A stretch of DNA of 64,000 nt from Deltaproteobacteria bacterium (GTDB lineage: Bacteria > Myxococcota_A > Polyangia > JAAYKL01), in the NCBI GenBank assembly GCA_028713995.1, contig JAQTNF010000007.1, positions 1,740 to 65,739 on the forward strand, written 5' to 3'. Shown piece by piece: positions 1-40,000 of the stretch; position 1 is the stretch's first letter; each line of letters begins with the position of its first letter. Position numbers and translations under genes: made by a program. The notes below the pieces were generated by a model, which saw nothing but the letters and a program-made list of their open reading frames with translations, made no database searches and was not told where the DNA came from.

Positions 1-1
1 G

Positions 2-1033
2 GTGAAGGTGGTCACGTCCATGAGCGACGCGGCCGCGCGGCACTCGGCCGGGCTCGAGCTCGACTACGGGCTTAAGAGCTCCACCTTGTCCACGCGGCTC
101 GGCTACGCATACGGCGGGCTGGGGCCGGGCCTGCACTTCGGCGTATCGCGCTCCGTGGCCCCGCGCGGCACGGGCTACGAGGTGGCCGGGGAGCCGCGCG
201 ACTGGTGGCAGGAGACGGTCAGCGGCCGGGCCAGCCTGTCCGTTCCCATCCTGGGCACGGATCGAAGCCAGTCGTTGTCGATCGGCTACTCGGTCATCCG
301 CGCGCGGCCCTGGGACGAGCCCGAGATCGCGTACGACCCCGAGGGCGATACTCCGGTCGTGCCGCGCGAGTACTTCCGGACCGGGCTCGAGTTCGGCTGG
401 GCCCTCGACACCACCATCTCGTCGCCCTACGGCATCACATCCGAGGAGGGCCGCGAGGTGTCGGCTTCCGTGGATCTCTACCACCCGGCGCTCGGCGGGG
501 ACCAGACCCTCGCCACGTTCCGCTACGCGTGGACCGAGTACCTGCGCACCCCGTGGCTCGACCACCACGTGTTCGTCCTCAAGCTCTCGGGCGGCGTGCA
601 CGTCAGCGATCCGCCGGAGCAGGCCTCGTTCTCCGCCGGCGGCTACGCGCAACAGAACGTGGTCGACGCCATCATGGGCGAGTCCTCGGCCGGGACGGCC
701 AGCCTGCGCGGCTACCCGCCGGGCCGCTTCCAGGGCGACCAGATCCATTCCGCGCGGCTCGAGTACCGCTTCCCCATCTGGTTCCCGGAGGCGGCCTACA
801 ACACGGTCCCGGCCTTCTTCAGCTCCGTGCGCGGCGGCGTGTTCTCCGACAACGTGCTCATCACCTTCGACGGGCTGAACCGGGACGACTGGAAGTCGAG
901 CGTGGGCGCGGAGATCGCGTGCGGCTTCGCCGTGGGCTACTACGTGCCCATGAGCCTGCGCGTGAGCTACGCGCGCGGCCTGATGGACGGCGGCATCCAC
1001 GAGGTCGTGGTGCTCGTCGGCTCCGGGCTGTGA
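2..1033 (+). CDS. Omp85/BamA-family outer-membrane beta-barrel protein, C-terminal part (5' end lies upstream of the window)
   Basis: ORF open from the window edge. Alternating amphipathic beta-strand pattern. Motif LRGYPPGRFQG...ARLEYRFPIW resembles the conserved Omp85 barrel motif. Stop at 1031-1033. Confidence 0.5.
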   Translation: MKVVTSMSDAAARHSAGLELDYGLKSSTLSTRLGYAYGGLGPGLHFGVSRSVAPRGTGYEVAGEPRDWWQETVSGRASLSVPILGTDRSQSLSIGYSVIRARPWDEPEIAYDPEGDTPVVPREYFRTGLEFGWALDTTISSPYGITSEEGREVSASVDLYHPALGGDQTLATFRYAWTEYLRTPWLDHHVFVLKLSGGVHVSDPPEQASFSAGGYAQQNVVDAIMGESSAGTASLRGYPPGRFQGDQIHSARLEYRFPIWFPEAAYNTVPAFFSSVRGGVFSDNVLITFDGLNRDDWKSSVGAEIACGFAVGYYVPMSLRVSYARGLMDGGIHEVVVLVGSGL

Positions 1034-1057
1034 GACAGCTGTTCCGGTCGGTTCTCA

Positions 1058-1822
1058 TCAGATGAGCTCGAACGTGATGTGGACGATCGTGATGATGTCC
1101 TTCTCGAGGGAGGTGGTGTCGTTGTTGCCTTCCCACGACGTCTGCGTGGAGTTCACCGGGTTCACGTTGATGACGCCCATGTCCGCGGCGCGCAGGTCGC
1201 CCAGGCGCGCGTCGCCGCCGGCCTGGCGGACGATGTTCTCGGCCCGGTTGCGCGCATCTCGGGCGGCCTCGGCCAGCATCTCGATCTTGAGCTCGCCGAG
1301 CTTGGTGTAGAAGTAGGCCGGGGCGGACGACGAGATGGGCACCCCGCGCTCGAGAAGCTGCGTGACCTCTCGGGAGATGCGCTCCACGCGCGCAACGTCC
1401 GTCGAGCGCACGCTCACGGTCTCACTCGTGGCGTAACCGCGGAACGCCTGGCGCTCGACGCGCTCCTCTCCGATGCCCACGTACTCGGTCTCGTAGCGCT
1501 CCTCGACGGTGGCGGACGAGGCGCGGATCTCCTGTTCCTTGACGCCCTGCTCCTTCAGGTAGGCGAGCGTGGTCTGCACGTAGCCGTGCAGGTTTCGGTA
1601 GGCCGCGGTGCGGTCCATGTCCTGGGTGGCGATGCTCGCGCTCCACTCGATCTGATCGGACATGATCTGCTTCTTCGCCGAGCCCGTGACCTGGATCGAG
1701 CGATCCGGCGGCTTCATCTTGACGCGCTCCCAGGAGCTTGCGGCGAGATACGTGGAGATCACGATCGCGATGCCGATGGCGATGAAGCTCCACGGCACGC
1801 GGCTCGGGGTGTTGTCGGTCAT
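1058..1822 (-). CDS. SIMPL-domain protein (DUF541, YggE-like periplasmic protein)
   Basis: N-terminal TM/signal segment WSFIAIGIAIVISTYLAA, then the typical SIMPL layout. Start moved to the second ATG (MTDNTP), which has a GGAAAGGGAG RBS; the ORF-track start is 1846. Confidence 0.7.
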   Translation of the reverse strand: MTDNTPSRVPWSFIAIGIAIVISTYLAASSWERVKMKPPDRSIQVTGSAKKQIMSDQIEWSASIATQDMDRTAAYRNLHGYVQTTLAYLKEQGVKEQEIRASSATVEERYETEYVGIGEERVERQAFRGYATSETVSVRSTDVARVERISREVTQLLERGVPISSSAPAYFYTKLGELKIEMLAEAARDARNRAENIVRQAGGDARLGDLRAADMGVINVNPVNSTQTSWEGNNDTTSLEKDIITIVHITFELI

Positions 1823-1970
1823 GCTCGGCTCCCTTTCCTGTCCCAAGGCTCTTGAACGCGGCTCCTACCTTATCACATTTTCCCGAGGCGTCTTTCACGG
1901 CGTTATGCCAAAATGTGCTCGCCCGGACTTCGGGTCGGGTGGAAGCAACGAGAGAGGTTGGTGAAGCCGA

Positions 1971-3512
1971 ATGGAACATGTTGACGCAATCGTACGCGCC
2001 TTCATCCCGACGTGTCTCGCTCTCGGCCTGCTCGCAGGCGGCTGCTCGAAGGAGAGCTCCGGCGGGCCGGCCTCGGACGCGGGCGACACCGCCACCGGAA
2101 CAGGGGAGGACGCCGGGCCGTCCAGCACCGACGAGTCGGCATGCCCGGACGACCAGGTGTGCACGCAGGTCACGGAAGACGGCGGCATGGGCTGTCAGAT
2201 CGACGGCGTGTTCCCGTCCGACGCGATCACCGGGTGCGACAAGGACCCCGCCATCTGCACCGGCAACTCCGCGTGTGTTCCTGCGAACAAGGAACAGACG
2301 GAATACGTATGCAGCACCAATTGCGGCACGTGCCCCGAAAACCAGACCTGTTCGAACGTGACCGGCAAGGGTCACTTCGGGTGCATGATCGGCGAGGTCT
2401 ACATACCCTCCGGCGCGCAGACCGGGTGCCACACGACCGGGTGCAAGGGCAACGCCACCTGCTTCTTCACTGACCAGGCGAAGACCGAATCGGTCTGCAT
2501 AGAGAACTGCTCGCCGTGCTATCCGGGGACCTGTCCGCAAGGCCAGGTGTGCACGTCCGGCATGTGTCTGGACGAGCCATGCACCGAGGGCTCGTGTGCC
2601 GACGGCGAGGTCTGCATCGCCGGATCGTGCATCCCCGACCCGGGCGACGGGCCTGGGCAGAACCCGGGCGTCACCTGCAACCTGCCGCCGCTCGAATGCG
2701 AGGGCGACGAGGCGTACTGCGGCGAGCTGATTGGGTTCGATCCCCCCAACAACCCCGGCGACGCGGGCTACGACCCGCTGCTCGGCTACATCGACTACCC
2801 TGTGAACGGCGAGACCTGGGACAACCAGTACCGCAGCTGGGCGCGGCGGGACGTGGTGATGATGATTGAGTACGCCGCGGCAAAGACGGCGTGCATGGCC
2901 GGGGGCTGGGAATTCGGCAACGGCGGCCCGGTCGGCTTGATCGACATGAGCGAGGAGAACGGCGCGATCCCCGGCACTTCGGACGGCACCCCCCAGCACC
3001 CCGCCGGCACTCACACGAACGGCTTCGACATCGATGTCGCCTATTTCCAGGCGAACACCCCGGACAACGATGTACGGCCGATCTGCAACCACTACCAGGA
3101 CAACGTCGACGTCCAGCATTGCACCGATCCGCCGAACCTGCTCGATCCCTGGCGCCAGGCCATGTTCGTGGGCGCGATCTTCGAGCACCCGAACCTGCGG
3201 GTGATCGGGTGCGACGGCAAGGTCGGCCCGATTCTCATGCACTACATCCAAGCCCTCTGCGCCGGCGGCTGGCTGACCACATACGCGTGCGCCAGCCAGC
3301 TCCTGACCTACGAGGTCACCAACATGGGCTATGGCTGGTACCACTCCCATCATCATCACATCCACGTCAGCTACACACGGCCGAGCAAGCGCGGAGGGCC
3401 CGCGGACGACCCGACATGCCTGGTTCCCGGGTGCGATCCCCCGGCGTTGGAACAGAACGTGGAGAAGACGGACCTCGTCCGGCCGCTCGCTCCGGTGCGC
3501 CGGCTGGAGTGA
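1971..3512 (+). CDS. Cysteine-rich secreted lipoprotein (about 60 Cys; disulfide-rich repeats)
   Basis: Signal peptide ending in the lipobox LLAGGC|S. Many C-x-x-C / GxC spacings. C-terminal segment DNVDVQHCTDPPNLLDPWRQAMFVGA recurs at the start of the 5072..6367 gene. GC-rich codon usage. Confidence 0.65.
   Translation: MEHVDAIVRAFIPTCLALGLLAGGCSKESSGGPASDAGDTATGTGEDAGPSSTDESACPDDQVCTQVTEDGGMGCQIDGVFPSDAITGCDKDPAICTGNSACVPANKEQTEYVCSTNCGTCPENQTCSNVTGKGHFGCMIGEVYIPSGAQTGCHTTGCKGNATCFFTDQAKTESVCIENCSPCYPGTCPQGQVCTSGMCLDEPCTEGSCADGEVCIAGSCIPDPGDGPGQNPGVTCNLPPLECEGDEAYCGELIGFDPPNNPGDAGYDPLLGYIDYPVNGETWDNQYRSWARRDVVMMIEYAAAKTACMAGGWEFGNGGPVGLIDMSEENGAIPGTSDGTPQHPAGTHTNGFDIDVAYFQANTPDNDVRPICNHYQDNVDVQHCTDPPNLLDPWRQAMFVGAIFEHPNLRVIGCDGKVGPILMHYIQALCAGGWLTTYACASQLLTYEVTNMGYGWYHSHHHHIHVSYTRPSKRGGPADDPTCLVPGCDPPALEQNVEKTDLVRPLAPVRRLE
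3101..3175. repeat. Imperfect direct repeat, copy 1 (~85% identity to 5069..5146)
   Basis: caacgtcgacgtccagcattgcaccgatccgccgaacctgctcgatccctggcgccaggccatgttcgtgggcgc. Confidence 0.7.
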
Positions 3513-3544
3513 CAGCCCGGGAGCGAATGGGTAGCGAAGTGCCC

Positions 3545-5030
3545 ATATGATCTCATCAAACCCCAACAAATCAAAGTTATGCAATTGGAGCACCTTTCTT
3601 ATTGCGCTTATTGCAATATGGGTTGTGATAACATTAATACAGATATCTAAAATCCATGCTGGATACTCGCCCGTGCTGTCCGATGAATTTGGATATTACC
3701 TGAATTCACTCGGTTTTGTAGAAACAAACAGCATTTCAGCGGCATTTACCCTTGGCCCGGCGGGCTCGCCCCTTCTTGGATGCGATGCACATGGATGCAT
3801 GTATCCTCTGTTGCATTACGGCATTGCAAAGATTTTCGGATGGCATAGTCGGTCGTTCATATATTTGAATATGGCATATATTATCGCAATGGCATTTATG
3901 ATATGGAGAATCAGGTTTTTAGATACAACGAAGAAGCTTTTGCTCGCGGTCGGCATTCTCTATTTCCCATTCTACTATCTATATTCATTTTCATACATGC
4001 AGGAATGCATGCACGCATTTATTGCCTTCACGTTGGGCTACCTCTTGATTCTGTTTTCGAGAAACACCATCAATTTATCACCATTTTATGCCTACACCAT
4101 TATCCTGTTCTTTGTCGGCTTATTCCGTCCACTGTGGTACTTCTGGATATGTGGGTTTGTCCCGTTTGTGTCAATCGCCAAGGTGCGACATACCTTGTTT
4201 TACGTAGTACCGGCGTACATGGCTTTCATGTTGTTCGTGACCACCTCGTTCTTCGAGCCCATTCCCAATTTTTTTTCCACAGTTACTAACGCATTATGCG
4301 CAGGACATGTGCTCGAGGCCATGCGGCTGTTATCTCTACACACGATGTCCAACGTTGTTAGTTATTTCTCATTCGGATTCAGTCTTATTGTATCGTGGTC
4401 GATCATCTATCTGTTTATCAACTTCAGTATTGTATTTTTTCTTATCGTCTGGATATGGCAAGCGGCAAGGACGAGGCAAAGCATATACATATCTCTGGCG
4501 ATAATTAATTTCATAAATTTGGCGCTACTGTTCGTCATGTACGATGCATTCGACTGGAGAGACATAAGAACAATGTCGCCGCTCATGTATTTCAATATTG
4601 TATTCATAGTGACATCGTTGCCTCGTATAAGATATGCGTATGTCATGCTCCTGATACCCACATTCATCATTAGCTACGCAATGTCGAACGACAGGATAGC
4701 GGAGAGGGACAAACCGGAGGGAACGGTTCTGGAAATGGATGGTATCAAGAAGGAGCTTTCGGGAATACTCGAAAAACCGGTCGTCTACCTTGAATCTATT
4801 CCGCCCGATTTTACGCCATGGTTTCTCGCATTTCCTCTGAAGAACGACAGTGGAATGAAAATGCACTATATTGCTCCATACTATAAGGGCATTCCGATGG
4901 CCGGCGATATTCACTATATATTTACAACGAACAAGCACCCGCGAAAGAGATTGATATGGCAACGTGATAAATACAAACTGTACGAGAACCCAATTGGGAT
5001 TGGGAATCGAATGCTCCTTCAACCCTGAAG
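3545..5030. other. Low-GC (~40%) cassette in a ~70% GC context (putative horizontally acquired DNA)
   Basis: Abrupt composition switch at both ends. The segment equals one ORF (3547..5028). No integrase or transposase is visible. Confidence 0.7.
3547..5028 (+). CDS. Polytopic membrane GT-C-fold glycosyltransferase (PMT/ArnT-like), encoded in low-GC DNA
   Basis: About 40% GC against ~70% flanks. 10-12 predicted TM helices. First extracytoplasmic loop carries a DE motif (LSDEFGYY) right after TM1, as in GT39/GT83 enzymes. Soluble C-terminal ~110 aa. The ORF fills the AT-rich segment exactly. Confidence 0.6.
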   Translation: MISSNPNKSKLCNWSTFLIALIAIWVVITLIQISKIHAGYSPVLSDEFGYYLNSLGFVETNSISAAFTLGPAGSPLLGCDAHGCMYPLLHYGIAKIFGWHSRSFIYLNMAYIIAMAFMIWRIRFLDTTKKLLLAVGILYFPFYYLYSFSYMQECMHAFIAFTLGYLLILFSRNTINLSPFYAYTIILFFVGLFRPLWYFWICGFVPFVSIAKVRHTLFYVVPAYMAFMLFVTTSFFEPIPNFFSTVTNALCAGHVLEAMRLLSLHTMSNVVSYFSFGFSLIVSWSIIYLFINFSIVFFLIVWIWQAARTRQSIYISLAIINFINLALLFVMYDAFDWRDIRTMSPLMYFNIVFIVTSLPRIRYAYVMLLIPTFIISYAMSNDRIAERDKPEGTVLEMDGIKKELSGILEKPVVYLESIPPDFTPWFLAFPLKNDSGMKMHYIAPYYKGIPMAGDIHYIFTTNKHPRKRLIWQRDKYKLYENPIGIGNRMLLQP

Positions 5031-5068
5031 AGGAGCTGCGGCCGCTCCGCAGCCGCTACCAGGAGGGC

Positions 5069-5146
5069 AACGTGGACGTCCACCGGTATTGCACCAATCC
5101 GCCGAACCTGCCCGATCCCCGGCACCAGGCCGTTTTCGTGGGCGCC
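5069..5146. repeat. Imperfect direct repeat, copy 2, just downstream of the low-GC cassette
   Basis: caacgtggacgtccaccggtattgcaccaatccgccgaacctgcccgatccccggcaccaggccgttttcgtgggcgc. Confidence 0.7.
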
Positions 5147-6367
5147 GCATGCTGCGCGCTGGTCCTTTTTTCGTGCGAAAAGGATCCGGATGCGCCGATC
5201 CCCACGACGGCCCAGTACACCATCCCGTCCGGGACAACCGCGCTCTCGTCCGCCTCTGAAGAGGTGCTCGAAGGAATCTACACGGTGACGGACGGGAGCT
5301 TGGACCTCGGGGACCAGGTCGTCCTGAAGTTCAACAAGGAGGGACTCACCATCGATTCCGGCAACGGGAACTACTTCTGCCTCAAGGCCGGTGAGCGTGA
5401 TTCCGAGATCTTCTTCCAGGGCTACTGGCGGTATGCGTTCGCCTACGAGGGCGGTCTCGCCTCAGCTCGTATCAAGAAGGAGGAGGGCGGAAGCGACATC
5501 CTGGCGGGAAAGGCGCCCGGCAGGATCATCATCCGCGGCGCCTATGGCCAAGAGGCGGGCACCCAGGACCAGCTGATGACCCTGTCATTCTCGCGACGTT
5601 TCTCGGATGCCGTGAAGAACAGCAGGTTCATGATCCTGGCCAACTTCGGAGGCGGGCGAAACTCCGACGGTTTTCCCGTCTCGCAGAACAGCATCGAGAT
5701 GCTTCAGTTCGCTCAACGGTTCGGCCACATGGGGGTCGAGGTCGATATCCGCGTCAGCAAGGATGGCGTGCCTTTCCTTTATCATGACGCGACCATCGAC
5801 GACAAAGCGTGCCGGGACGGACCGTTGGACGGACCCATCGACGACTATACATGGGAAGAGATTTCCAGCTCCGTCAGGCTGATTCGCGGCGAGAAGATCC
5901 CAAGCCTCGAAGACGCGCTGAGCTTCATTGTCGACAGTACCGACATGGAGTTCGTCTGGCTGGACATGAAAGTCGGCGACAACGCCGCCGCCAGGGTCAT
6001 CCCCATCCAAATGAAAACGCTCGCCAGGGCAAAGGAGCTGGGCAGGAACCTGCGGATCGTCTTCGGCGTTCCTACGCAACAAGTCATGGATGACTTCACG
6101 TCGTATCCCGGGTATGCGGACATCCCCTCCTTGTGCGAAATGACCGTCGACGACGTGCTGGAGCTCAATGCGGCGGCGTGGGGACCGCAATCGACCAGGG
6201 GACTGCAGGTCGATGGCCTCAAGAAGATCCATGACAAGGGAAAGATCGGGATAACCTGGTCGCTCGACGACAGCCGCACGATCGAGAAATTCCTCAACGA
6301 GACGAACTTCGACGGATTCCTGACCGATTACCCGTGCCTCGTGGCTTACCATCATTACATAAGATAG
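5072..6367 (+). CDS. Lipoprotein with a glycerophosphodiester phosphodiesterase (GDPD) domain
   Basis: GDPD core QNSIEMLQFAQRFGHMGVEVDIRVSKDGVPFLYHDATID. Putative lipobox LVLFSC|EKD. Proposed start is an in-frame GTG preceded by AGGAGGG. The ORF-track start (4964) lies in the AT-rich cassette, in a different frame from the cassette gene, and is probably spurious. Confidence 0.55.
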   Translation: MDVHRYCTNPPNLPDPRHQAVFVGAACCALVLFSCEKDPDAPIPTTAQYTIPSGTTALSSASEEVLEGIYTVTDGSLDLGDQVVLKFNKEGLTIDSGNGNYFCLKAGERDSEIFFQGYWRYAFAYEGGLASARIKKEEGGSDILAGKAPGRIIIRGAYGQEAGTQDQLMTLSFSRRFSDAVKNSRFMILANFGGGRNSDGFPVSQNSIEMLQFAQRFGHMGVEVDIRVSKDGVPFLYHDATIDDKACRDGPLDGPIDDYTWEEISSSVRLIRGEKIPSLEDALSFIVDSTDMEFVWLDMKVGDNAAARVIPIQMKTLARAKELGRNLRIVFGVPTQQVMDDFTSYPGYADIPSLCEMTVDDVLELNAAAWGPQSTRGLQVDGLKKIHDKGKIGITWSLDDSRTIEKFLNETNFDGFLTDYPCLVAYHHYIR

Positions 6368-6382
6368 CCGCCTTCCGCGCGC

Positions 6383-6616
6383 TCACGGGCCGGCATCCCT
6401 TTGGGCGCACACGTGGGCGGTGTTCTCGCAATTGTCTACGACCACCTCGTGCCCGGTGTCGCAGTACCGGGTCTCGTCCCCTGCGTCGGCGCAGTCCGTG
6501 TCCCCGACGCAGATGAGCGGCCCGTCGAGAGAATTCGGCATGCACGCGTCGTTCTTCCCGCAGCCCATGACGGCCGCGGCGGCCACGATCCCCGCCGTCC
6601 ATGCGATCATGCCCAT
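6383..6616 (-). CDS. Small cysteine-rich lipoprotein (77 aa)
   Basis: Strong RBS GAAGGAGGG 4 nt before the ATG. Signal peptide with lipobox AVMGC|GKND. 8 Cys in the mature part. Confidence 0.5.
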   Translation of the reverse strand: MGMIAWTAGIVAAAAVMGCGKNDACMPNSLDGPLICVGDTDCADAGDETRYCDTGHEVVVDNCENTAHVCAQRDAGP

Positions 6617-6632
6617 CGCGCCCTCCTTCGGC

Positions 6633-7739
6633 CTATTCGAGCAGGTCCTTCAGCTTCTCGATGAACGTGCGCGGCCGCGTCTCGATCTCGGTGCCGAGCT
6701 CCTTGCCCAGCTCGGCCACGAGCTCCTTCTGGCGCGCCGTGAGCTTGCGCGGGATGTCCACCTCCACGCGCACGAGCTCGTCGCCACGTCCGCTCCCGCG
6801 GAGCATCGGAACGCCCTTGCCCTTCAAGCGGTAGGTCTGGCCGCTCTCGGTGCCCGGCTTGATCCGCATCTTGACCGGCCCGTCCACGGTCGGCACATCC
6901 ACCTCGGCGCCGAGGACCGCCTGCGGGAAGCCGACCTTGATGGCGCACAGGAGGTTCATGCCGCGTCGCATGAAGATGGGGTGATCCTGCACGTGGATGA
7001 CGATGTGCAGGTCCCCGTCCGGCGCGCCGCCCCGGCCCTGCTCGCCCGCGCCCGGAATGATCTTGACCGCGCCGTCGTCCGCACCCGCCGGGATGCCCAC
7101 CTCGAACTGCTGGTCCTTGACCGAAAGCCCGCGGCCGTCGCACCCCGGGCAGCGGTTGCGCACCACCTCGCCCGCGCCGCCGCACGACGGGCACGTGGCG
7201 CTCATGGCGAAGATCCCGCTTTCCAGCCTCACGGTCCCCGTCCCTGAGCAGCGGCCGCACTTGTCCGGCGCGGTGCCCGGCGCGGTGCCCGAGCCCTGGC
7301 ACGTGTCGCAGCGCACCGGGCGTGGGATGGTCACGCGTACGTCCGTGCCGGAAACGGCCTGCTCGAGCGTGATCGTAAGATCGTATTGGAGATCGCGGCC
7401 CGGGTGTCCTCCCCTTCGTCGCGCGCGCGGCGCGCCGCCGAAGACCGAGCCGAAGATGGAGTCGAAGAAGTCGGCCATGGAGCCGATGTCCACCGCCCCG
7501 GGGCCGCCGTGGATGCCCGGCGCGTCGTGGCCGAACCGGTCGTAGCGCATGCGCTTGTCCGGATCCGAGAGCACCTGGAAGGCTTCGGTCAGCTCCTTGA
7601 ACTTCTCGGCCGCGCTCACGTCGTCCGGGTTCTGGTCCGGGTGAAACTTCATGGCGAGCTTGCGGTAGGCCTTCTTGAGCGCGTCCGGCGCCGCGTCGCG
7701 GCCCACCCCCAGGACCTCGTAGTAGTCGCGCTTGGGCAT
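6633..7739 (-). CDS. dnaJ: Chaperone DnaJ (Hsp40)
   Basis: J-domain with HPD motif (KFHPDQNPDD). G/F-rich linker. Four CxxCxGxG zinc-finger repeats. C-terminal substrate-binding domain. Confidence 0.9.
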   Translation of the reverse strand: MPKRDYYEVLGVGRDAAPDALKKAYRKLAMKFHPDQNPDDVSAAEKFKELTEAFQVLSDPDKRMRYDRFGHDAPGIHGGPGAVDIGSMADFFDSIFGSVFGGAPRARRRGGHPGRDLQYDLTITLEQAVSGTDVRVTIPRPVRCDTCQGSGTAPGTAPDKCGRCSGTGTVRLESGIFAMSATCPSCGGAGEVVRNRCPGCDGRGLSVKDQQFEVGIPAGADDGAVKIIPGAGEQGRGGAPDGDLHIVIHVQDHPIFMRRGMNLLCAIKVGFPQAVLGAEVDVPTVDGPVKMRIKPGTESGQTYRLKGKGVPMLRGSGRGDELVRVEVDIPRKLTARQKELVAELGKELGTEIETRPRTFIEKLKDLLE

Positions 7740-7748
7740 CGGCTCGGC

Positions 7749-9593
7749 CTAGGCGGACTCGCCCTCGTCGGCGTCCTTGCCTACGCCCGCGTACATGATC
7801 TCGGCGATTCGGAAGGCCGACTGCTCGAGCTGGGCGCGGATGCGCTTGATGTGCTCGACGTCCTCGCTCAGCATGGCCTGCTTCAAGGCCACGATGTCCG
7901 CACGGATCACCTCGCGATCTCCGGGACCGAGCACGTCGCCGTACTCCTCGAGGGCGTGCTCCGATGTGTAAAGCAAGGAGTCGCCCGCCACGCGCGCTTC
8001 GGCCAGGAGCCTGCGGTGCTCGTCGTCCACCTTGAGCGCGTCCGCCTCGGCGATGATGCGGTCGATGTCGATCTTGGTGAGGCCCGACCCGGCCGTGACC
8101 CGGATGCTGTGCTCCTTGCCCGTGCCGAGGTCCCGCGCCGAGACCGACACGATTCCGTTGGCGTCGATGTCGAACTGCACCTGGATCTGCGGCACGCCGC
8201 GCGGCGCGGGTGGGATGCCCGCGAGCTCGAACTTTGCGAGCGTGATGTTGTCCTTGGCCATGGGGCGCTCGCCCTGCATCACGTGGACGGGCACGAAGTT
8301 CTGGTTGTCGAGGCTCGTGGTGAAGATCTGGCGCTTGCGGGTGGGGATGGTCGTGTTGCGCTCGATGAGCTTCGTGAACACGCCGCCGCCGGTCTCCACG
8401 CCCAGGCTGAGAGGCGTCACGTCGAGCAGCAGCACCTCGGCCATCTCGCCGGCCAGCACCGCGCCCTGGATGGCGGCGCCCACGGCCACCACCTCGTCCG
8501 GGTTCACGCCGCGCACCGGCTTCTTGCCGAAGAACTCGGCCACCGACTCCTGCACCAGGGGCATGCGCGTCATGCCGCCCACCAGGATGACCGTGTCGAT
8601 CTGGGAGACGCCCACCCCGGAGTCGGCGAGCGCCTGCTTGCACGGGCCGAAGGTCTTCTTCACCAGGTCCTCCACGATCCCCTCGAGCTCCTGGCGCGTG
8701 ATGGTCGTGATGAGGTGCTTGGGGCCGAGCGCGTCGGCCGCGATGAAGGGCAGGTTGATCTCGGTTTCGAGGGACGACGACAGCTCGTGCTTGGCCTTCT
8801 CGGCCGCCTCCTTGAGCCGCTGCAGCGCCATCTTGTCGCGCCGCAGGTCGATCTTGTGCTCCTCGTTGAACCGGTCGGCCAGGAAGTCGACGATGCGTTG
8901 GTCGAAGTCCTCGCCGCCGAGAAACGTGTCGCCGTTGGTCGACTTGACCGCGAAGACGTCGTTCTCCATCTCCAGGATCGAGATATCGAACGTCCCGCCT
9001 CCGAGATCGTAGACGGCCACCTTTTCCACGCCCCCGCCCTTCTTGTCGATGCCGTAGGCGAGCGCCGCGGCGGTCGGCTCGTTGATGATGCGCTCCACGG
9101 TCAACCCGGCGATGAGGCCCGCGTCCTTGGTGGCCTGCCGCTGGGCGTCGTTGAAGTACGCCGGGACCGTGATGACCGCCCGGTTCACCTTCTCGCCCAG
9201 GTAGTCCTCGGCCACGGAACGCATCTCGGAAAGGACGATGGCCGAGATCTCCGGAGGGCTCATGAGCTTGCCGCGGCACGTGACCCACGCGTCGCCGTTC
9301 TGCGACTTGGTGATCTCGTACGGGCACATCTTGCGCTGGCGCTCCACCTCGAGCGACTCGAACGGGCGGCCCATGAGCCTCTTCACCGCGTAGATCGTAT
9401 TCGTCGGGTTGGTGATGGCCTGGCGCTTGGATGACTGACCCACGAGGCGCTGGCCGCTCTCGGCGACGGCGACCATGGACGGCGTGGTGCGGCTGCCCTC
9501 CGAGTTGGGGATGACGATGACCTCCTTGCCCTCCATCACGGCCACGCACGAGTTCGTGGTTCCGAGGTCGATACCGATGATCCGATCAGGCAT
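7749..9593 (-). CDS. dnaK: Chaperone DnaK (Hsp70)
   Basis: [22 protein letters not shown] and [11 protein letters not shown] Hsp70 signatures. 614 aa. Confidence 0.95.
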
Positions 9594-33940: not shown

Positions 33941-34052
33941 GCGCGCAAGGGTGCGTCCCTTTGCCCGAACCGGCCGAGAAAATCGTGGCGTATTCGGGCG
34001 CCGTGCGTAAGAATCGACTCGTAATGCCATGAGACACCGTTGGGAGGCGCCC

Positions 34053-37000
34053 ATGTGCCAGGTTCGCGTCATGCTCGGATTGTCCGGTCCGCTGCTTTCG
34101 CTCTCGCTCCTCGGCCTCGCCGGATGCGACCGCGGCCGTGACGGGCACGCGCCCCGCGCCTCGGCGCCCAAACCCGTGCCAGCGACGACCCGCCAGACGC
34201 CGAAGAACTCGAACCGGTGGCTCAACGACGTGCAGGAGCGCATCGCGAACGAGGAGTATCGCGTCGCGCGGCAGGACGATTGGAGCTTCGCCGCCGCGAA
34301 CCGGGCGCACAATCTGCGCGCGCGGTTCCGGGACGGCGCTGCGCGCATCGAGCCGCGCGAGAGCGTGGCCGGCCAGGGACACTGGGCTGCGACGCTCGCG
34401 GTGACCGGGTTCGGCCGCGAGGGCGCCGTGCTGGACGTGGATCGCGGCGAGGCGCGCTCCGGGGCGTGCGACGACAAGGCAGGGCCGGGCGCCACGGATG
34501 AGTGTTTGAAGCGGTTGGAGATCGTTCGGGACGGGCTCGTCGAGTGGTGGGGCAACTGGGTCGACGGGATGGAACAGGGGTTCGACGTGGCCGAGCGGCC
34601 CGAGGGCGTGGGCGAGCTCGCGATCCGCGTGGAGGTCGAGGGGCTCGAGGCCAAGCAGGACGGCCCGACCGGCGCGCTGCTGCGCCAGAACGGCGAGCTG
34701 CGCTTGGCTTACTCGGGCCTGTCTGCCAAGGACTCGGCCGGCAAGGCGCTGCCCGCGCGCATGGCCGTCGGGGCGGACTCGATCCTGTTCTTTGTCGACG
34801 ACGATGACGCAACATACCCCGTCGTCATCGATCCGCTCCTCACCTCGCCCGCCTGGACCGCGGAGAGCGACCAGGCAGGCGCCCAGTTCGGGTATTCGGT
34901 CGCGTCCGCGGGTGACGTGAACGGCGATGGGTTCAGCGATGTCATCATCGGGGCGCCATACTACGACGGCCTGACAGACGAGGGCGCAGCATTCGTGTTC
35001 CATGGATCATCATCTGGCCTTTCGACCTCGGCCAACTGGACCGTGAAGGGCGGACAGGCGAGTGCGCTTTTCGGCAACTCCGTCGCTTCGGCAGGAGATG
35101 TGAACGGCGACGGGTACGAAGACGTCATTGTTGGCGCTTATGCTTTTGACAACGGCCAGACCGACGAGGGCCGCGTCTTCGTCTACCACGGCTCGTCCAC
35201 CGGCCTCTCGACCACTCCAGCGTGGACCGCGGAGAGCGACCAGGCGAGCGCGGAATTCGGAATCTCGGTGTCGTCGGCCGGCGACGTGAATAGCGATGGA
35301 TATGCGGATGTCATCGTAGGCGCACACAAGTTCGCCAACGGCCAGGCCGCCGAAGGCCGAGCGTACGTGTATCACGGCTCGGCTTCCGGGCGGTCAGCGA
35401 CAGCCAACTGGACAGCGGAGGGTGATCAGATCGGCGCACACTTCGGCACCGCCGTCGCGTCGGCAGGAGACGTGAACGGCGACGGGTACACGGACGTCAT
35501 CATCGGCGCTCCTGACTATGACAAAGGAATCACGGATGAAGGCGCGGCATTCGTTTTCCACGGCTCGGCCTCGGGTCTTTCTTCCACATACTGGATCGCC
35601 GGAAGCATGCAGGCGAACTCCAACTACGGCGGCTCCGTCTCGTCCGCCGGAGATGCGAATGGCGACGGGTACGCGGATGTCATCGTCGGCGCTCGAAACT
35701 ACGACAACGGCCAGACCGACGAAGGCCGCGTCTTCTTCTACAAGGGTGGTCCGGACGGCCTCTCGCCGTCCGCGGATTGGACGAACGAGAGCAACCAGGC
35801 GAATTCCGGGTACGGGAAATCGGTCGCCGGGGCAGGGGATGTGAACGGAGACGGATACTCCGACTTCATCGTCAGCGCTCACCGATATGACAACGGCCAA
35901 ACGGACGAAGGTCGGGTTTTCGTGTACTACGGCTCCGCCAGCTCCTTCTCCTCCACCGGTGCCTGGACGGTGGAGAGCGACCAGGCGGAGGCGCTCTTGG
36001 GCAACTCGGTGTCTTCTGCCGGTGATGTCAACGGCGACGGCTACTACGACATCATCATCGGCTCATCCTACTACGACAACGGCCAGACCGACGAAGGCCG
36101 CGCCTACGTCTACTACGGTTCCGCCGCCGGCCTTGCGACGTCTTCCGGTTGGACCGCTGAGAGCAATCAGGCGAACGCGGTGTTCGGATATTCCGTCTCC
36201 TCGGCCGGTGACGTGAACGGCGACGGGTACGCCGACGTCATCGTCGGCGCCGACTATTACTCCAACGGCCAAACCGGTGAGGGGCGCGCCTACATCTATC
36301 ACGGCGCGGCGTCCGGTCTCTCCACCACCGCGGCCTGGAGCGACGAAGGCAACGAGGCCAACGCGCTCTTCGGAAAATCCGTATCCGCTGCCGGGGACGT
36401 GAATGGCGACGGCTACGGCGATGTCATCGTGGGTGCGCCTTCGTACGGCAACGGTCAATCCGGTGAAGGAAGAGCGTTCGTCTACCATGGATCGACCTCC
36501 GGTCTGTCGGCCACACCCGACTGGACAGCGGAGGGCGACCAAGTCAACGCATGGTTCGGCTTCTCCGTTGCCGCTGCAGGGGATGTGAATGGCGATGGGT
36601 ACGGCGATATCATCGTAGGCGCCAATCAATACGACAATGACCAAACCAACGAGGGCCGGGCGTTCGTGTTCCACGGTTCTGTTTCGGGACTATCGGCCGC
36701 TGCCGACTGGACCGCTGAGAGCGATCAGGCGGACGCGGAATTCGGTCGCTCCGTGGCGTCTGCCGGGGATGTGAACGGCGACGGCTACGGTGATGTCGTT
36801 GTAGGAGCACCCTACTACGACAACGGCCAGACCGACGAGGGCCGCGCATACGTCTATTATGGCTCCGCCACCGGGCTCGCGGCGACCGCGAACTGGATCA
36901 AGGAGAGCGATCAGCCGAACTACGCGTTGGGGTATTCCGTTTCCTCCGCCGGCGACGTGAACGGCGACGGATATGGGGATGTCATCGTCGGCGCCCCAAA

Positions 37001-40000
37001 TCCAACGGGGAATGGTAACAATAACGGCTTCGCATATGTTTTCTACGGCTCGGCCTCGGGGCTCGGAGTTGCGGCTGATTGGACCGCCAGTGTGAATCCT
37101 GTCAATTTCGGCATGTCGGTCGCTACTGCAGGAGATGTCAACGGCGACGGGTACAGCGATGTTGTCATCGGCTCGCCCCGTTACGGAAACGGCCAGACCC
37201 TCGAGGGCCGAGCGTACGTGTACCATGGCTCTGCCAGCGGATTGGCGACAACCGCCGGTTGGGGTGCCGAGAGCAACCAGGCGAGCGCCTCCTACGGCTG
37301 GTCCGTTGCATCCGCCGGGGACGTGAACGGGGACGGTTACTCGGATATCGTTATTGGTTCCTATATGTACGACAACGGCCAGTCGAACGAAGGCCGCGCG
37401 TTCCTCTACTACGGCAACGGCGGTGCGGGCCTCTCCGTTCGCCCCCGGCAGTTCAACGCCGACGGCGACCCGCAGATGCAGGCGTTCGCCAAGGCCGAGA
37501 CGGGCAACATCCAGATCCAGATACCGGCGCGCTCCGATCGCGGCCGCACCAAGGTCAAGCTCGAGTACGAGATCCAGCCGCACACGACGCCGTTCGATGG
37601 AACGGGGCTGCGGCGGTCGGCGAGTTGGACCGACACGGGCAACCCCGCGGACGGCGTGAACGATCTCACCGAGACCGTGAGCGGGCTTTCGGGAGGCGAC
37701 TACCACTGGCGCGCGCGGCTCGTCTACCACCCTTCCTCACCGGGCGGTGGCGAGCACTCGCGATGGATCGTGTACGACAGGATCGGCTCGTGGCAGCCGG
37801 ACTTCCGCATCTCGGTCGAGAAGAAGCCCGACGGCGAGACCTGCGGCGGCGCCGGCGAGTGCCTGAGCGGCAACTGCGTGGCGGGCACGTGCTGCTTCGA
37901 CCCGTGCGCGACGCCGCCGGATTGCAAGGTCCCGCCGGCCACCTGCCCGGGCGGCACGGCCTGCTCCTACGAGAACGCCGCGGACGCCACCCAATGCCTC
38001 GGCGGAGGCGGCCTGTGCAAGGGCGGCGAGTGCGTGACGAACGAGTGCTATCTCGGCGCGTGGTACGCGAGCGGCCAGCCCACGGAAGGCTGCAAGTTCT
38101 GCGACCCGGCCACGAGCCGGACCGCGTGGACCGACCGTCCCAACACGTACCCGGACTCCTGCGGCACGGCCGCCTGCCCGGCCGACGCCTGCTCCGGCGG
38201 AGCGTGGCTCGACTACGGCGCGTCCTGCCAGCTCACGTGCAACGGCTTCGGGATCTGCGGCTCGTCGTGCGCGTGCACGCCGGCCACGACCGCCTGCTCG
38301 GCCGCAGGCTGCTGCCAGTCCGCTTGCGCTCCGGCCACGGGCTGCTACACCACCGCCGGCTCGTGCGGCGGGACCGACACGTGCAACGCCAACGTGCTCA
38401 CGGTGGGAAACTCGTGCACCGGCTGCGCGCTGAACGGCGCCATCGGCGCATGCGCGGGCGGCGCGACCTACACATGCAACTCGAGCGTGCACCCCACGTG
38501 CGAGAGCCGCTCGTGCAATGGGGCCACGTACTATTGCACGAACGGGGGCGGCATCTGGCAGTGGCGCACGGGCACGGGCTGCGACGACGGGGCCCTGTGC
38601 ACGTACGGGGACGCGTGCGGCGGCGGGACGTGCAGCGGCACGGCGGTGAGCTGCACGGACACGGCGTGCGTGGACCGGACGTGCAACGGGACGAGCGCCT
38701 GCGCCGAGAGCTACATGAGCGGGTCGACCTCGTGCGGCGCCACGGCTTGTCCCGCGGACTCGTGCACCGGGCTGACGTGGCACAACTACGCAGCGACCTG
38801 CACGCGCTATTGCAACGGGTCGGGGAACTGCAACACCTGCTCCTGCGCGCCCGTCGACGTGACGTGCACGGCCGGCGGGTGCTGCCAGGCCGCATGCGAT
38901 GCCGCGACCGGGTGCTCGAGCGCAGCCGGATCCTGCGCGGACGTATGCGGCGCGACGACGCTCGAGGTGGCGCGCACCTGCTCGGGGTGCGGGGCGAACG
39001 GCGCCTCGGGCACATGTGCCGGCACGACGCACGCCTGCAGCGCGGGGAAGGCCTGCGCGCAGGTGACCTGCGGCGGAACGGCGTACACCTGCACGAACGA
39101 CGGCGGCACGTGGCAGTGGCGCGCGTCGGCCGCCTGCAACGACGGGAACGCCTGCACTTACAACGACACCTGCTCCGGGGGCGCGTGCCAGGGGCAGCCC
39201 ATCACGTGCACGTCGGACACGTGCATGACGCGGACGTGCAACGGCACCTCCACGTGCACCGAGAATGCGGCCATCCTCGGCACCCCCTGCGGGACCTCGG
39301 CATGCCAGGCGGACGCGTGCGACGGGCTTGTGTTCGAGAACTACCCGGCGACGTGCAACCGAACCTGCGATGGCGACGGCACGTGCCAGACGTGCACGTG
39401 TACGGCGACAACGACGAGCTGCGCGGCGGGGTCGGGCTGCTGCACGGCGATCTGCAACCCGACGACCGGGTGTGCAACCCAGCCGGGGACTTGTGGCGGG
39501 GGAGGGGACACGTGCGGCGCCGAGGTCCTGACCGTCGGACAGGTCTGCAACGGGTGCGGCTCAAATGGCGCGGAAGGGACTTGCGTCGCGGGCGGGACGT
39601 TCACGTGCAGCGACGCGGTGCACGACGAGTGCGAGCTCGCGAGCTGCGGCGGGAACCCGCTCTACTGCGTGGAGGACCTCATTGACGGCTGGGGCTGGAA
39701 CACGGATCCGGCCTGCGACGACGGCGACGCGTGCACCCACGACGACGCATGCGCGGGTGGCGCCTGTGCCGGGACGCCCATGGAGTGCGTGTCGGACGCC
39801 TGTAAAACGCGGGCCTGCAACGGCACATCCGAGTGCGACGAGCAGGACGTGGACGCGGGCACGCCGTGCGGCGCGGAAGACTGCCCCGCAGACTCGTGCG
39901 GCGGGACGACATGGAGCGACTACCCGGCCGCGTGCGAGCGGGCCTGCGACGGCGCTGGTGCGTGCGCGGGTTGCGAATGCCAGCCGATGACCGACGCGTG

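Follow-up and report, generated by a model that had tools for sequence, protein, structure and literature searches.

GT-C genes are variable, transferable components of envelope glycosylation systems. The enzymes themselves, and three-component periplasmic glycosylation, are defined in PMC11127046, where the three-component systems include GtrA/GtrB/Gtr* in Shigella and Salmonella and the GT136 system in Citrobacter. Other GT-Cs use undecaprenyl-phosphate sugars to O-glycosylate proteins: PMT/GT39, the streptococcal PgfS-PgfM1, and GtrB-PgtC2 (PMC12041528). The Arn pathway comprises the ArnB aminotransferase, the ArnC GT2, the ArnE/F flippase, and the GT-C enzyme ArnT (GT83).

The locus described here lies in a window of 64 kb (the whole stretch of DNA that was analysed, 64,000 nt) from a MAG named 'Deltaproteobacteria bacterium', with ~69% GC. 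It occupies a core chromosomal region, beside grpE-dnaK-dnaJ. The reading that we favour, with a probability of about 0.7, joins three elements: positions ~3545-5019 are promoterless DNA acquired from a low-GC donor; this DNA encodes a GT-C glycosyltransferase of an unnamed family; and the repeat flanking it is the scar of a rearrangement. The donor probably was a distant, Bacteroidota-like bacterium. The features are as follows.

1971-3512, + strand: gene A, encoding a 513-aa Cys-rich putative lipoprotein with lipobox LAGGC (NCBI MDD5306176.1, 'hypothetical protein').
3056-3175, + strand: upstream repeat copy, codons 362-402 of gene A, from a conserved part of its family (sequence alignment).
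3513-3546, + strand: host-type spacer, 34 nt, from the gene A stop to the ATG of the presumed foreign gene, lacking both a terminator-like site and a good Shine-Dalgarno sequence.
3545-5019, no strand assigned: low-GC segment (~0.43), read as foreign and essentially ORF-sized.
3547-5028, + strand: gene for a 493-aa polytopic GT-C-fold protein (NCBI MDD5306177.1, 'hypothetical protein'; ORF list, family search, AF2 model).
3682-3687, + strand: codons for D46-E47, the acidic pair opening the first extracytoplasmic helix after TM1 (family conservation, AF2 model).
5020-5145, + strand: downstream repeat copy, derived by decay from a piece of gene A (or of a recently made duplicate) and continuous in frame with the GDPD gene.
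5061-5074, + strand: AGGAGG at 5061-5066, a 5-nt spacer, and GTG at 5072-5074, the best start for the GDPD gene (sequence inspection).
5072-6367, + strand: GDPD-family putative lipoprotein gene (NCBI MDD5306178.1, annotated from 4994), with lipobox LFSC at 5165-5176.

An earlier note on this DNA had claimed a sharp GC drop at 3545 with a return at ~5030, and a single ORF filling the AT-rich segment. Window GC and codon-position GC3 were computed, and confirm both claims. GC is ~0.66-0.70 outside and 0.38-0.47 within ~3545-5019 in sliding windows, and 30-nt windows place the edges at ~3540-3550 and ~5015-5020. Successive 200-nt windows descend from 0.605 (3401-3600) through 0.445 to a minimum of 0.375, then rise through 0.515 (4901-5100) to 0.64. 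No other such trough occurs in the 64 kb, where the lowest other 1-kb value is 0.598. The ORF is intact on the + strand, and its GC1/2/3 values are 0.40/0.36/0.53; GC3 is 0.79-0.96 for all 42 other likely ORFs of the 64 kb, and 0.80-0.96 for the adjoining genes. The trough and the GC3 contrast thus support the note's view of the segment as foreign and single-ORF in composition. The insert is exactly ORF-sized, without flanking foreign DNA.

GC3 also bears on residence time. Regression over the protein family predicts a GC3 of 0.38 from GC1+2 (residual SD 0.035), and the observed 0.53 lies ~4 SD above this. A GC3 raised in this way is what amelioration leaves on a resident gene, and it speaks against an assembly chimera. 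During long residence, third codon positions would have drifted toward host GC as the ORF and its family-invariant residues stayed intact, which suggests that the gene has been kept by selection.

That no mobility gene accompanies the segment, as the note had it, is supported: there is no integrase, transposase, or recombinase nearby, no tRNA in the 64 kb, and no terminal inverted or direct repeat at 3545/5019. The neighbours are Omp85, SIMPL, GDPD, dnaJ, dnaK, grpE, sigma factors, bioB, and uvrD. The segment thus lacks the marks of a genomic island, mobile element, or integron cassette (a recombinase, a tRNA or att site, exact flanking repeats). This absence had been called unusual; in itself it is not, for an old, partly ameliorated single-gene acquisition. 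Searches found no phage, plasmid, or viral relatives. Nor did scans with gene A, the GDPD protein, and DnaJ find an empty-site relative. Gene A had no match among genome contigs, and its closest homologues (62-65% identity) lie in unrelated, non-syntenic contexts. Metagenome scans gave no match to the GDPD protein; with DnaJ, the best matches (63-65% identity) have dnaK adjacent and no Omp85, SIMPL, gene A, or GDPD.

The 493-aa protein had been called a PMT/ArnT-like GT-C glycosyltransferase with a loop-1 DE motif. GT-C identity and the motif are borne out by fold comparison and by a conserved Asp-Glu pair in 101 family sequences; the likeness to PMT and ArnT holds at the level of fold, and fails at the level of sequence. 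The AF2 model (pLDDT 93.3; a run from only 4 sequences gave pLDDT 57 and was set aside) contains ~12-13 long helices over residues 8-387, followed by a small alpha/beta C-terminal domain, in keeping with the 7-13 transmembrane helices of the GT-C superfamily. It is structurally similar to solved GT-C enzymes, and catalytic members of that superfamily match it best. In the model TM1 is a helix over residues 8-35; D46/E47 open the helix that follows (45-60), in the first extracytoplasmic loop, where acidic residue(s) are conserved in GT-C enzymes. All 101 sequences share D46; E47, Y50, G83, Y86, N108, E153, R194, N269, P430, and Y441 each occur in at least 90% of them. The window protein keeps all 11 of these invariant or nearly invariant residues, and D46, judged by conservation, is the candidate catalytic base. 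The final ~10 residues run past the C-termini of homologues, into the junction.

At the sequence level, the window protein matches no Pfam model at E <= 0.1 and no NCBIfam model; none of the 101 family members matches a GT-C Pfam model (PMT, PMT_2, and ArnT included) at E <= 0.01; and a profile search of PDB sequences found no GT-C. Lacking any PMT, PMT_2, or ArnT model match or PDB sequence match, the protein is not a member of GT39 or GT83.

The family is large, with 695 clusters at 50% identity recovered by exhaustive search (E <= 1e-3); word-indexed homology search under-reports it, with 4-5 matches. Every named member looked up is a 'hypothetical protein' (records from Aquimarina, Algoriphagus, Gammaproteobacteria, and Spirochaetota). 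Bacteroidota account for 12 of 14 genome loci, and in most the GC of the gene follows that of its flanks. The window protein sits on a long branch. Its nearest sampled relatives are from Bacteroidota (32-37% identity), and the closest are low-GC-type proteins; a high-GC-type homologue, P0141, lies only slightly farther off (distance 1.59, against 1.30).

Many of the homologue loci share a neighbour set, conserved in 8-9 of 15 and missing in 6 of 15. It includes an aminotransferase of WecE type (542 bits, above the curated cutoff) and a PgfS/ArnC-like GT2 (PF00535) aligned over its full length, along with an ArnF-like small flippase, a WecD-like acyltransferase, a methyltransferase, and a polytopic protein, c3. 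The last has no PDB sequence match, and comparison by hhalign (probability 7%) rejects it as a distant paralogue of the GT-C. A GT2 and a small flippase encoded with the GT-C, the hallmark of a three-component system, are found in loci L011, L012, L014-L017, and L022-L024. The window has neither: tblastn with the partner proteins from five homologue loci (E <= 1e-3) found none of them in the 64 kb.

The flanking genes are of host type. Gene A (GC3 0.87; identical to P0005) belongs to a family of 233 matches, mainly from Deltaproteobacteria/Myxococcales MAGs, and matches nothing in Pfam, NCBIfam, or PDB. Its H..D / HxH motifs raise the possibility of a LAS-type metallopeptidase; searches gave no confirmation, and this serves as a lead only. 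The GDPD gene matches PF03009 (E = 3.6e-16). Its GC3 of 0.80 is within the host range of 0.79-0.96, and co-acquisition with the GT-C gene is not claimed. Putative lipoprotein signal peptides, each ending in a candidate lipobox, can be read directly from the sequence in both (gene A, ...CLALGLLAGG-C; GDPD gene, ...AVFVGAACCALVLFS-C, its N-terminus depending on the start codon chosen), in support of the note's placement of the foreign ORF between two (putative) lipoprotein genes, all in the same orientation.

The note had also described a 78-bp, ~85%-identical direct repeat bracketing the unit, and took it as a mark of insertion or recombination. The repeat is real, and longer: two blocks, 3113-3175 versus 5083-5145 (87%) and 3056-3100 versus 5020-5064 (73%), join into ~120 versus 126 nt with two 3-nt indels. 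In the upstream copy the residues N366, R369, C372, H383, C384, P388, L391, D392, P393, and R395 are family-invariant. The downstream copy, detected by tblastn of gene A on the window at E = 1e-8, has lost 5 of the 10 covered invariant residues and shows pN 0.20 versus pS 0.17. Its nearest match is gene A itself (56% aa), with which it has the derived NVDV and PPNL motifs in common. Read in this way, the repeat is not a target duplication or att site; it is, to judge from alignment and substitution pattern, a rearrangement scar, a neutrally decayed 120-nt partial duplicate of gene A at the right junction. The duplicate could have originated as templated filler, as a truncated tandem duplication, or as a paralogue remnant.

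The in-frame fusion of the downstream copy to the lipobox of the next gene, likewise proposed earlier, is confirmed. Within the fragment, a GGG insertion and a GTC-to-GTG change made the AGGAGG and the GTG. The GDPD gene now seems to take its Shine-Dalgarno sequence, its GTG start, and the N-region of its signal peptide from this fragment; in the NCBI and Logan annotations it starts at TTG 4994 instead of 5072. The GT-C gene follows gene A by 34 nt and precedes the likely GDPD start by 43 nt, all on the same strand. No terminator-like site separates the three genes, promoter and terminator scans are at background level, and neither junction shows significant RNA structure (z = -1.8 and -0.9). 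Common strand, close spacing, and lack of a terminator make it most likely that the GT-C gene is transcribed by read-through.

Several other explanations were weighed against this reading. The gene might be native, its AT-richness a by-product of encoding a membrane protein rich in Ile, Phe, Tyr, Asn, and Lys; the protein is indeed FYMINK-rich (0.39) and GARP-poor (0.20). Third positions, however, are free of amino-acid constraint, and they depart from host values; moreover, homologues from ~70% GC organisms have gene GC of 0.69-0.71 and GC3 of 0.89-0.94, so the fold does not require AT-rich coding. A native origin is thus barely credible. Equally hard to credit is an assembly or binning chimera, in which a Bacteroidota read path entered a Deltaproteobacteria contig. 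In its favour, the DNA comes from a MAG, and the two assemblies available were probably built from one read set; yet over window positions 1-7678 the independent Logan assembly of SRR22315509 shows 100% identity, so that two assemblers give identical sequence through both junctions. Furthermore, each junction falls at an end of the ORF, and beyond the segment the contig resumes the same genome; a GC3 ~4 SD above family expectation would not be seen in a Bacteroidota gene newly spliced in; and among 5.8 billion proteins there is no homologue above 37% identity and no second context. A silent or decaying passenger is easier to imagine: the foreign gene might be untranslated from 3547, or have no donor substrate, and so be functionless here. 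There is no recognisable Shine-Dalgarno sequence before ATG 3547, one program's gene call, P0001, starts at the internal ATG 3898, removing TM1 and D46/E47, and the 64 kb holds no GT2, aminotransferase, flippase, or c3 partner. Against this, 493 codons remain intact in stop-prone AT-rich DNA though GC3 rose by ~0.15, all 11 conserved family residues persist, and codon positions 1 and 2 moved far less than position 3, as purifying selection predicts. We regard the passenger explanation as unlikely.

Two further alternatives concern parts of the favoured reading, and both seem improbable. One holds that the repeat copies are products of homology-driven (Campbell-type) or site-specific integration, the repeat being the cassette's recombination site. 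The copies do run in the same direction on either side of the foreign ORF, and the right copy abuts the right GC boundary exactly; the left copy, by contrast, lies inside gene A, 370 nt before the low-GC start. The enclosed unit therefore includes 337 nt of host gene A along with the spacer and the foreign ORF, and the copies do not bracket foreign DNA alone, as the earlier note had supposed. Deletion between them would yield a gene A::GDPD fusion, an implausible ancestor; no recombinase is present; and the fragment is closest to gene A and neutrally decayed, as duplicated host DNA should be. The other alternative grants the GT-C-like fold and denies glycosyltransferase function, making the protein a polymerase, a ligase, or a non-catalytic GT-C-like subunit of the PIG-U/GAB1 kind. 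Its best structural matches are catalytic enzymes, however, an invariant Asp with an adjacent Glu comes right after TM1, and a polyprenyl-phosphate GT2, a sugar aminotransferase, and an ArnF-like flippase are encoded by genes linked to those of the family.

If the protein is a glycosyltransferase of a resident foreign gene, as favoured here, what might it do? Enzymes of this family would take a sugar from a polyprenyl-phosphate carrier at the outer face of the inner membrane, with Asp46 in the first extracytoplasmic loop acting as catalytic base, and pass it to an envelope acceptor: glycan, lipid, or protein. In Bacteroidota, the GT-C would perform the last step of an Arn/Gtr-like module. Its other parts would be the aminotransferase of WecE type, for dTDP-4-amino-4,6-dideoxyhexose; the WecD-like N-acyltransferase or the methyltransferase; the ArnC/PgfS-like GT2, loading the sugar on undecaprenyl phosphate; the ArnF-like small flippase; and the second polytopic protein. 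On the strength of this WecE/GT2/ArnF-like linkage, the family may be a new glycosyltransferase family, one that would add a 4-amino-4,6-dideoxyhexose-type sugar in the periplasm. In the window, the GT-C gene alone would have been captured, so a host-made lipid-linked sugar would be needed; as the usual partners are absent from the 64 kb, the donor substrate in this host is hypothetical. A speculative and rather doubtful extension has the orphan GT-C domesticated in a three-gene envelope operon, transferring a sugar from host undecaprenyl phosphate to the Ser/Thr-rich tethers of the flanking lipoproteins or to another envelope acceptor. Were this true, the locus would record the cross-phylum transplant of a single gene of a new glycosyltransferase family, in which the same rearrangement used a duplicated coding fragment to give the downstream gene a new ribosome-binding site, start codon, and signal-peptide N-region.

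Together, these results do not overturn current understanding: the transfer is tidy but fairly ordinary. They do draw attention to a GT-C family that has no name and no Pfam or NCBIfam match, and that comprises ~700 clusters at 50% identity. The window itself would be a clean natural case of an ORF-sized, cross-phylum acquisition caught mid-amelioration, in which a duplicated piece of coding sequence has apparently been turned into the translation start of the next gene and the N-region of its signal peptide.

Comparison with the described systems brings out both likeness and difference. Compared with the Arn pathway, the aminotransferase of the homologue loci is WecE-type rather than ArnB, the GT-C matches neither ArnT nor PMT_2 models, and there is an extra polytopic partner, c3. 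Unlike enzymes of the PMT/GT39 and PgfS-PgfM1 type, the window family has no PMT, PMT_2, or YfhO sequence match. With the Gtr and GT136 systems it shares a final GT-C-fold enzyme, and the GT-C as the variable component; in the Bacteroidota and Gallionellaceae homologue loci, too, the GT-C is linked to a small flippase-like protein and to a polyprenyl-phosphate glycosyltransferase of GT2. In contrast, the family has no sequence relationship to Gtr*, GT136, or any other named GT-C family, and the window GT-C stands alone, with no GtrA/GtrB-type partners and no phage carrier found. Finally, amelioration of horizontally transferred genes is a concept reportedly due to Lawrence and Ochman, and the window gene resembles other ameliorating genes in its atypical GC and in a GC3 shifted toward the host relative to GC1+2. 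It differs in that the insert is confined to one ORF, carries no mobility genes, and lies in a housekeeping neighbourhood.

The compositional break is confined to one gene. In 200-nt sliding windows, GC content lies at 0.63-0.70 up to about position 3500, first reads 0.445 and reaches a minimum of 0.375 across 3501-5000, and is back at 0.64 by 5001-5200; 30-nt windows place the steps at about 3540-3550 and 5015-5020. There is no second comparable trough in the 64 kb, every other 1-kb window being at least 0.598. (GC also dips mildly, to 0.60 at 32-33 kb and to 0.62 at 58-59 kb; a 2582-aa ORF at 34029-41777 is of host-type composition, with GC3 of 0.85.) A single ORF fills the trough:

1971-3512, + strand: gene A, 513-aa Cys-rich putative lipoprotein, identical to NCBI MDD5306176.1 (PHU25_02535) from a "Deltaproteobacteria bacterium" MAG, 77-kb contig
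3547-5028, + strand: the AT-rich ORF, 493 aa, NCBI MDD5306177.1, "hypothetical protein"
5072-6367, + strand: the GDPD gene, next after the AT-rich ORF, NCBI MDD5306178.1, "glycerophosphodiester phosphodiesterase family protein"

GC at the three codon positions of the AT-rich ORF is 0.40/0.36/0.53, against GC3 of 0.80-0.96 in its neighbours, and it alone of 43 likely window ORFs has GC3 below 0.79. Homology with Bacteroidota proteins begins at about residue 3, and the GC step falls within about 5 nt of the ATG. The C-terminus runs about 10 residues beyond those of homologues, and the stop codon (TGA, 5026-5028) lies within the first bases of the downstream repeat copy. The insert is ORF-sized. 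The region around it is housekeeping: gene order is Omp85-family protein, SIMPL, gene A, insert, GDPD, dnaJ, dnaK, and grpE, and the window also holds an ECF sigma/anti-sigma pair, a sigma-54 activator, bioB, and uvrD. We found no tRNAs within the 64-kb window, no terminal repeats (inverted or direct) at either GC boundary, and no relatives of the gene on phage, plasmid, or viral contigs. The event is a conventional horizontal acquisition, unusually clean.

What does the gene encode? Pfam returned a sub-threshold viral-family match only, NCBIfam returned none, and a 101-sequence profile found no GT-C among PDB sequences. Exhaustive HMMER searching with a four-sequence profile recovered 695 family representatives at E <= 1e-3, each standing for a 50% identity cluster; 113 of them reach E <= 1e-30, and lengths are mostly 450-510 aa. 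In the 101-sequence alignment D46 is invariant and ten residues are at least 90% conserved: E47, Y50, G83, Y86, N108, E153, R194, N269, P430, and Y441. The AlphaFold2 model built from that alignment (pLDDT 93.3, pTM 0.93) places the first transmembrane helix at residues 8-35, followed by an extramembrane segment whose first helix begins at D46-E47; about eleven further long helices reach residue 387 and give way to a small C-terminal alpha/beta domain. Structural matches include ALG9, ALG3, PIG-U, AftB, ALG6, Pmt1/2, STT3, PimE, PglB, and AftD; Foldseek matches include AftA (3e-4), AglB, ArnT, and PglB, each with probability 1.0 and TM about 0.5. GT-C enzymes have 7-13 transmembrane helices, an extracytoplasmic domain after the first, and lipid-linked donors (PMC11127046). 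These features fit that description, so the earlier note's call of a GT-C glycosyltransferase with a loop-1 DE motif stands at the level of fold. A kinship with GT39 or GT83 was not borne out: GT-C Pfam models match 0 of the 101 family members.

Family distribution points to Bacteroidota. Twelve of the 14 loci found by genome scan belong to that phylum (Ferruginibacter, Aquimarina, Chitinophagaceae, Flavobacteriaceae, Catalimonadaceae, Cytophagales, Paludibacter, and Algoriphagus); the others come from one Desulfobulbaceae and one Gallionellaceae MAG, and cluster look-ups added Gammaproteobacteria and Spirochaetota MAGs. At most Bacteroidota loci homologue GC (0.25-0.34) tracks flank GC (0.27-0.36). 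At the Desulfobulbaceae, Catalimonadaceae, and Gallionellaceae loci (L018, L020, and L022) it lies 0.06-0.17 below the flanks (0.38/0.44, 0.30/0.47, and 0.44/0.51, respectively), which suggests repeated movement of the family between lineages. By corrected distance, the nearest relatives of the window protein are low-GC-type Bacteroidota proteins (1.30); high-GC-type members, about one-fifth of family representatives by amino-acid composition, lie mostly at 2.0 or more, with homologue P0141 at 1.59. Among 5.8 billion proteins there was no homologue more than 37% identical and no other context for the gene. Because the branch is long, the true donor is unsampled.

Residence in the host has left its own mark. 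Regression over 13 homologues (GC3 = 2.08*GC12 - 0.40, where GC12 is the mean of GC1 and GC2; residual SD 0.035) predicts GC3 of 0.38; the observed 0.53 is about 4 SD higher. Such an excess is what amelioration should leave in a gene resident in a high-GC genome. It argues against very recent arrival and against a splice artefact. That the low-GC block is an assembly chimera is thus scarcely credible; a separately built Logan contig (run SRR22315509) matches window positions 1-7678 at 100% identity and spans both junctions. Equally remote is a native gene that is AT-rich through its own bias: three high-GC-type homologues on contigs of about 70% GC are encoded at GC 0.69-0.71 and GC3 0.89-0.94, so the fold does not force AT-rich coding. 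Codon positions 1 and 2 have shifted far less than position 3, the ORF is intact, and D46 and all ten conserved residues are kept, from which we infer purifying selection in the host. A silent passenger is unlikely, with a minor but real chance; a non-catalytic GT-C-like protein has little chance.

The flanking direct repeat noted earlier is real. Segments 3113-3175 and 5083-5145 are 87% identical, and the match extends leftward at 73% (3056-3100 and 5020-5064). Joined up, the upstream copy measures 120 nt and the downstream copy (the fragment) 126 nt, the latter carrying two 3-nt insertions. The upstream copy encodes gene A residues 362-402, including ten family-invariant residues, and a tblastn search of the window with the gene A protein picks up the fragment (E = 1e-8). 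Among 120 gene A family members the fragment is nearest to gene A itself (56% amino acid identity), and both carry the derived NVDV and PPNL in place of the consensus AEAY and PPHL. The fragment therefore comes from gene A's own lineage rather than a distant paralogue. It lacks five of the ten invariant residues (N366, C372, H383, L391, and R395) and the nearly invariant W394, and pN (0.20) about equals pS (0.17), a sign of neutral decay.

The fragment spans 5020-5145: its first base coincides with the right GC boundary, and its reading frame continues past the last into AACCALVLFS-C, which forms the GDPD protein's hydrophobic core and lipobox. The repeat is a rearrangement scar and not the mark of a mobile element, and there is only a slim chance that it is a recombination site. 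Three origins are possible: illegitimate joining with filler templated on sequence 1.9 kb upstream; tandem duplication of 3056-5019, the second copy truncated by deletion into the GDPD signal peptide; or a recent tandem duplication of gene A, of which the fragment is what is left. By rough estimate, fragment divergence (about 0.18-0.2 per site) and the foreign gene's GC3 shift (about +0.15, equilibrium near 0.9) are roughly compatible with a single event.

A GGG insertion in the fragment (CAGGAC to CAGGAGGGC) and, separately, a GTC-to-GTG change created AGGAGG, a 5-nt spacer, and GTG (5061-5074). Of the five in-frame candidate starts, this one has much the best ribosome-binding context. (NCBI and Logan place the GDPD start at TTG 4994.) Identity between the copies is 73% 5' of this GTG and 87% 3' of it. 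The fragment thus appears to supply the ribosome-binding site, start codon, and signal-peptide N-region (MDVHRYCTNPPNLPDPRHQ-AVFVGAACCALVLFS-C) of the GDPD gene. The putative GDPD lipoprotein has a predicted mature N-terminus of C-EKDPD and an N-terminal region of about 190 aa without Pfam or NCBIfam match; its gene has GC3 of 0.80, the low end of the host range, and a JGI metagenome scan found no close relatives. The family of gene A is large and unannotated (233 matches, mostly Deltaproteobacteria/Myxococcales MAGs), and searches of Pfam, NCBIfam, and PDB sequences yielded no match for the gene A protein. Some 30 of its Cys are fully or almost fully conserved, as are H343, H348, D355, and an HHHHxH run (460-465) resembling a metal site.

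How might the acquired gene work here? The three genes share a strand and are separated by 34 nt and, counting to the 5072 start, 43 nt; they have no terminator-like site between them, and promoter-like matches do not exceed background. Read-through from gene A would be the simplest route for transcribing a promoterless foreign ORF. The enzyme would need a host-made lipid-linked sugar. Both flanking putative lipoproteins have Ser/Thr-rich stretches right after the predicted lipidated Cys, and streptococcal GT-Cs O-glycosylate such tethers using undecaprenyl-phosphate sugars (PMC12041528). From these tethers and that precedent comes the idea that the enzyme glycosylates its neighbours' tethers, which, joined to the reading of a domesticated three-gene operon, is quite unlikely.

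Neighbour clustering identified a set of genes recurring at 8-9 of 15 homologue loci:

c3: polytopic protein of about 400 aa, without known family
GT2: about 310 aa, PF00535, aligning full-length to the PgfS and ArnC models
WecE-type dTDP-4-amino-4,6-dideoxyhexose transaminase: 542 bits against a curated cutoff of 375
methyltransferase
WecD-like acyltransferase
ArnF-like/EamA protein: 122 aa

None of these partners is detectable in the 64-kb window. At locus L022, the WecE, GT2, ArnF-like, and c3 genes adjoin the homologue. The c3 gene does so at 8 of 15 loci (L011:9468-10670, L012, L014-L016, L022-L024); its product has invariant D41, H45, and K201-P-S-F204, shows no kinship with the GT-C family in an hhalign comparison, and could be an obligate partner missing from the window. 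Directly 5' of the homologue in Ferruginibacter and Chitinophagaceae (L011:6066-7925, L012, L017) lies an HSP70 paralogue (619 aa; 43% identity with window DnaK, 7749-9593); in the window, dnaK lies 2.7 kb away on the opposite strand, and the proximity is probably coincidence. A deoxyhypusine-synthase-like gene (PF01916) lies 31 nt 5' of the gene for homologue P0003 on a Bacteroidota-type metagenome contig (L004:8995-9969, L006:2072-3046). The Aquimarina loci (L014-L016) encode two or three extra large polytopic proteins of about 650-780 aa carrying TPR repeats at the C-terminus (for example L015:5642-7864 and L015:218-2185); by BLAST they group with the GT-C family, and they flank the same WecE/GT2 module.

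The recurrent neighbour set has the layout of Arn- and Gtr-type periplasmic glycosylation, in which a GT2 attaches a sugar made in the cytoplasm to undecaprenyl phosphate, and a GT-C transfers it once it has been flipped across the membrane (PMC11127046). The case comprises an unnamed GT-C family and a single-gene transfer across phyla. The window protein would act as a GT-C of the Gtr*, ArnT, or PMT type, yet it stands outside every named sequence family.
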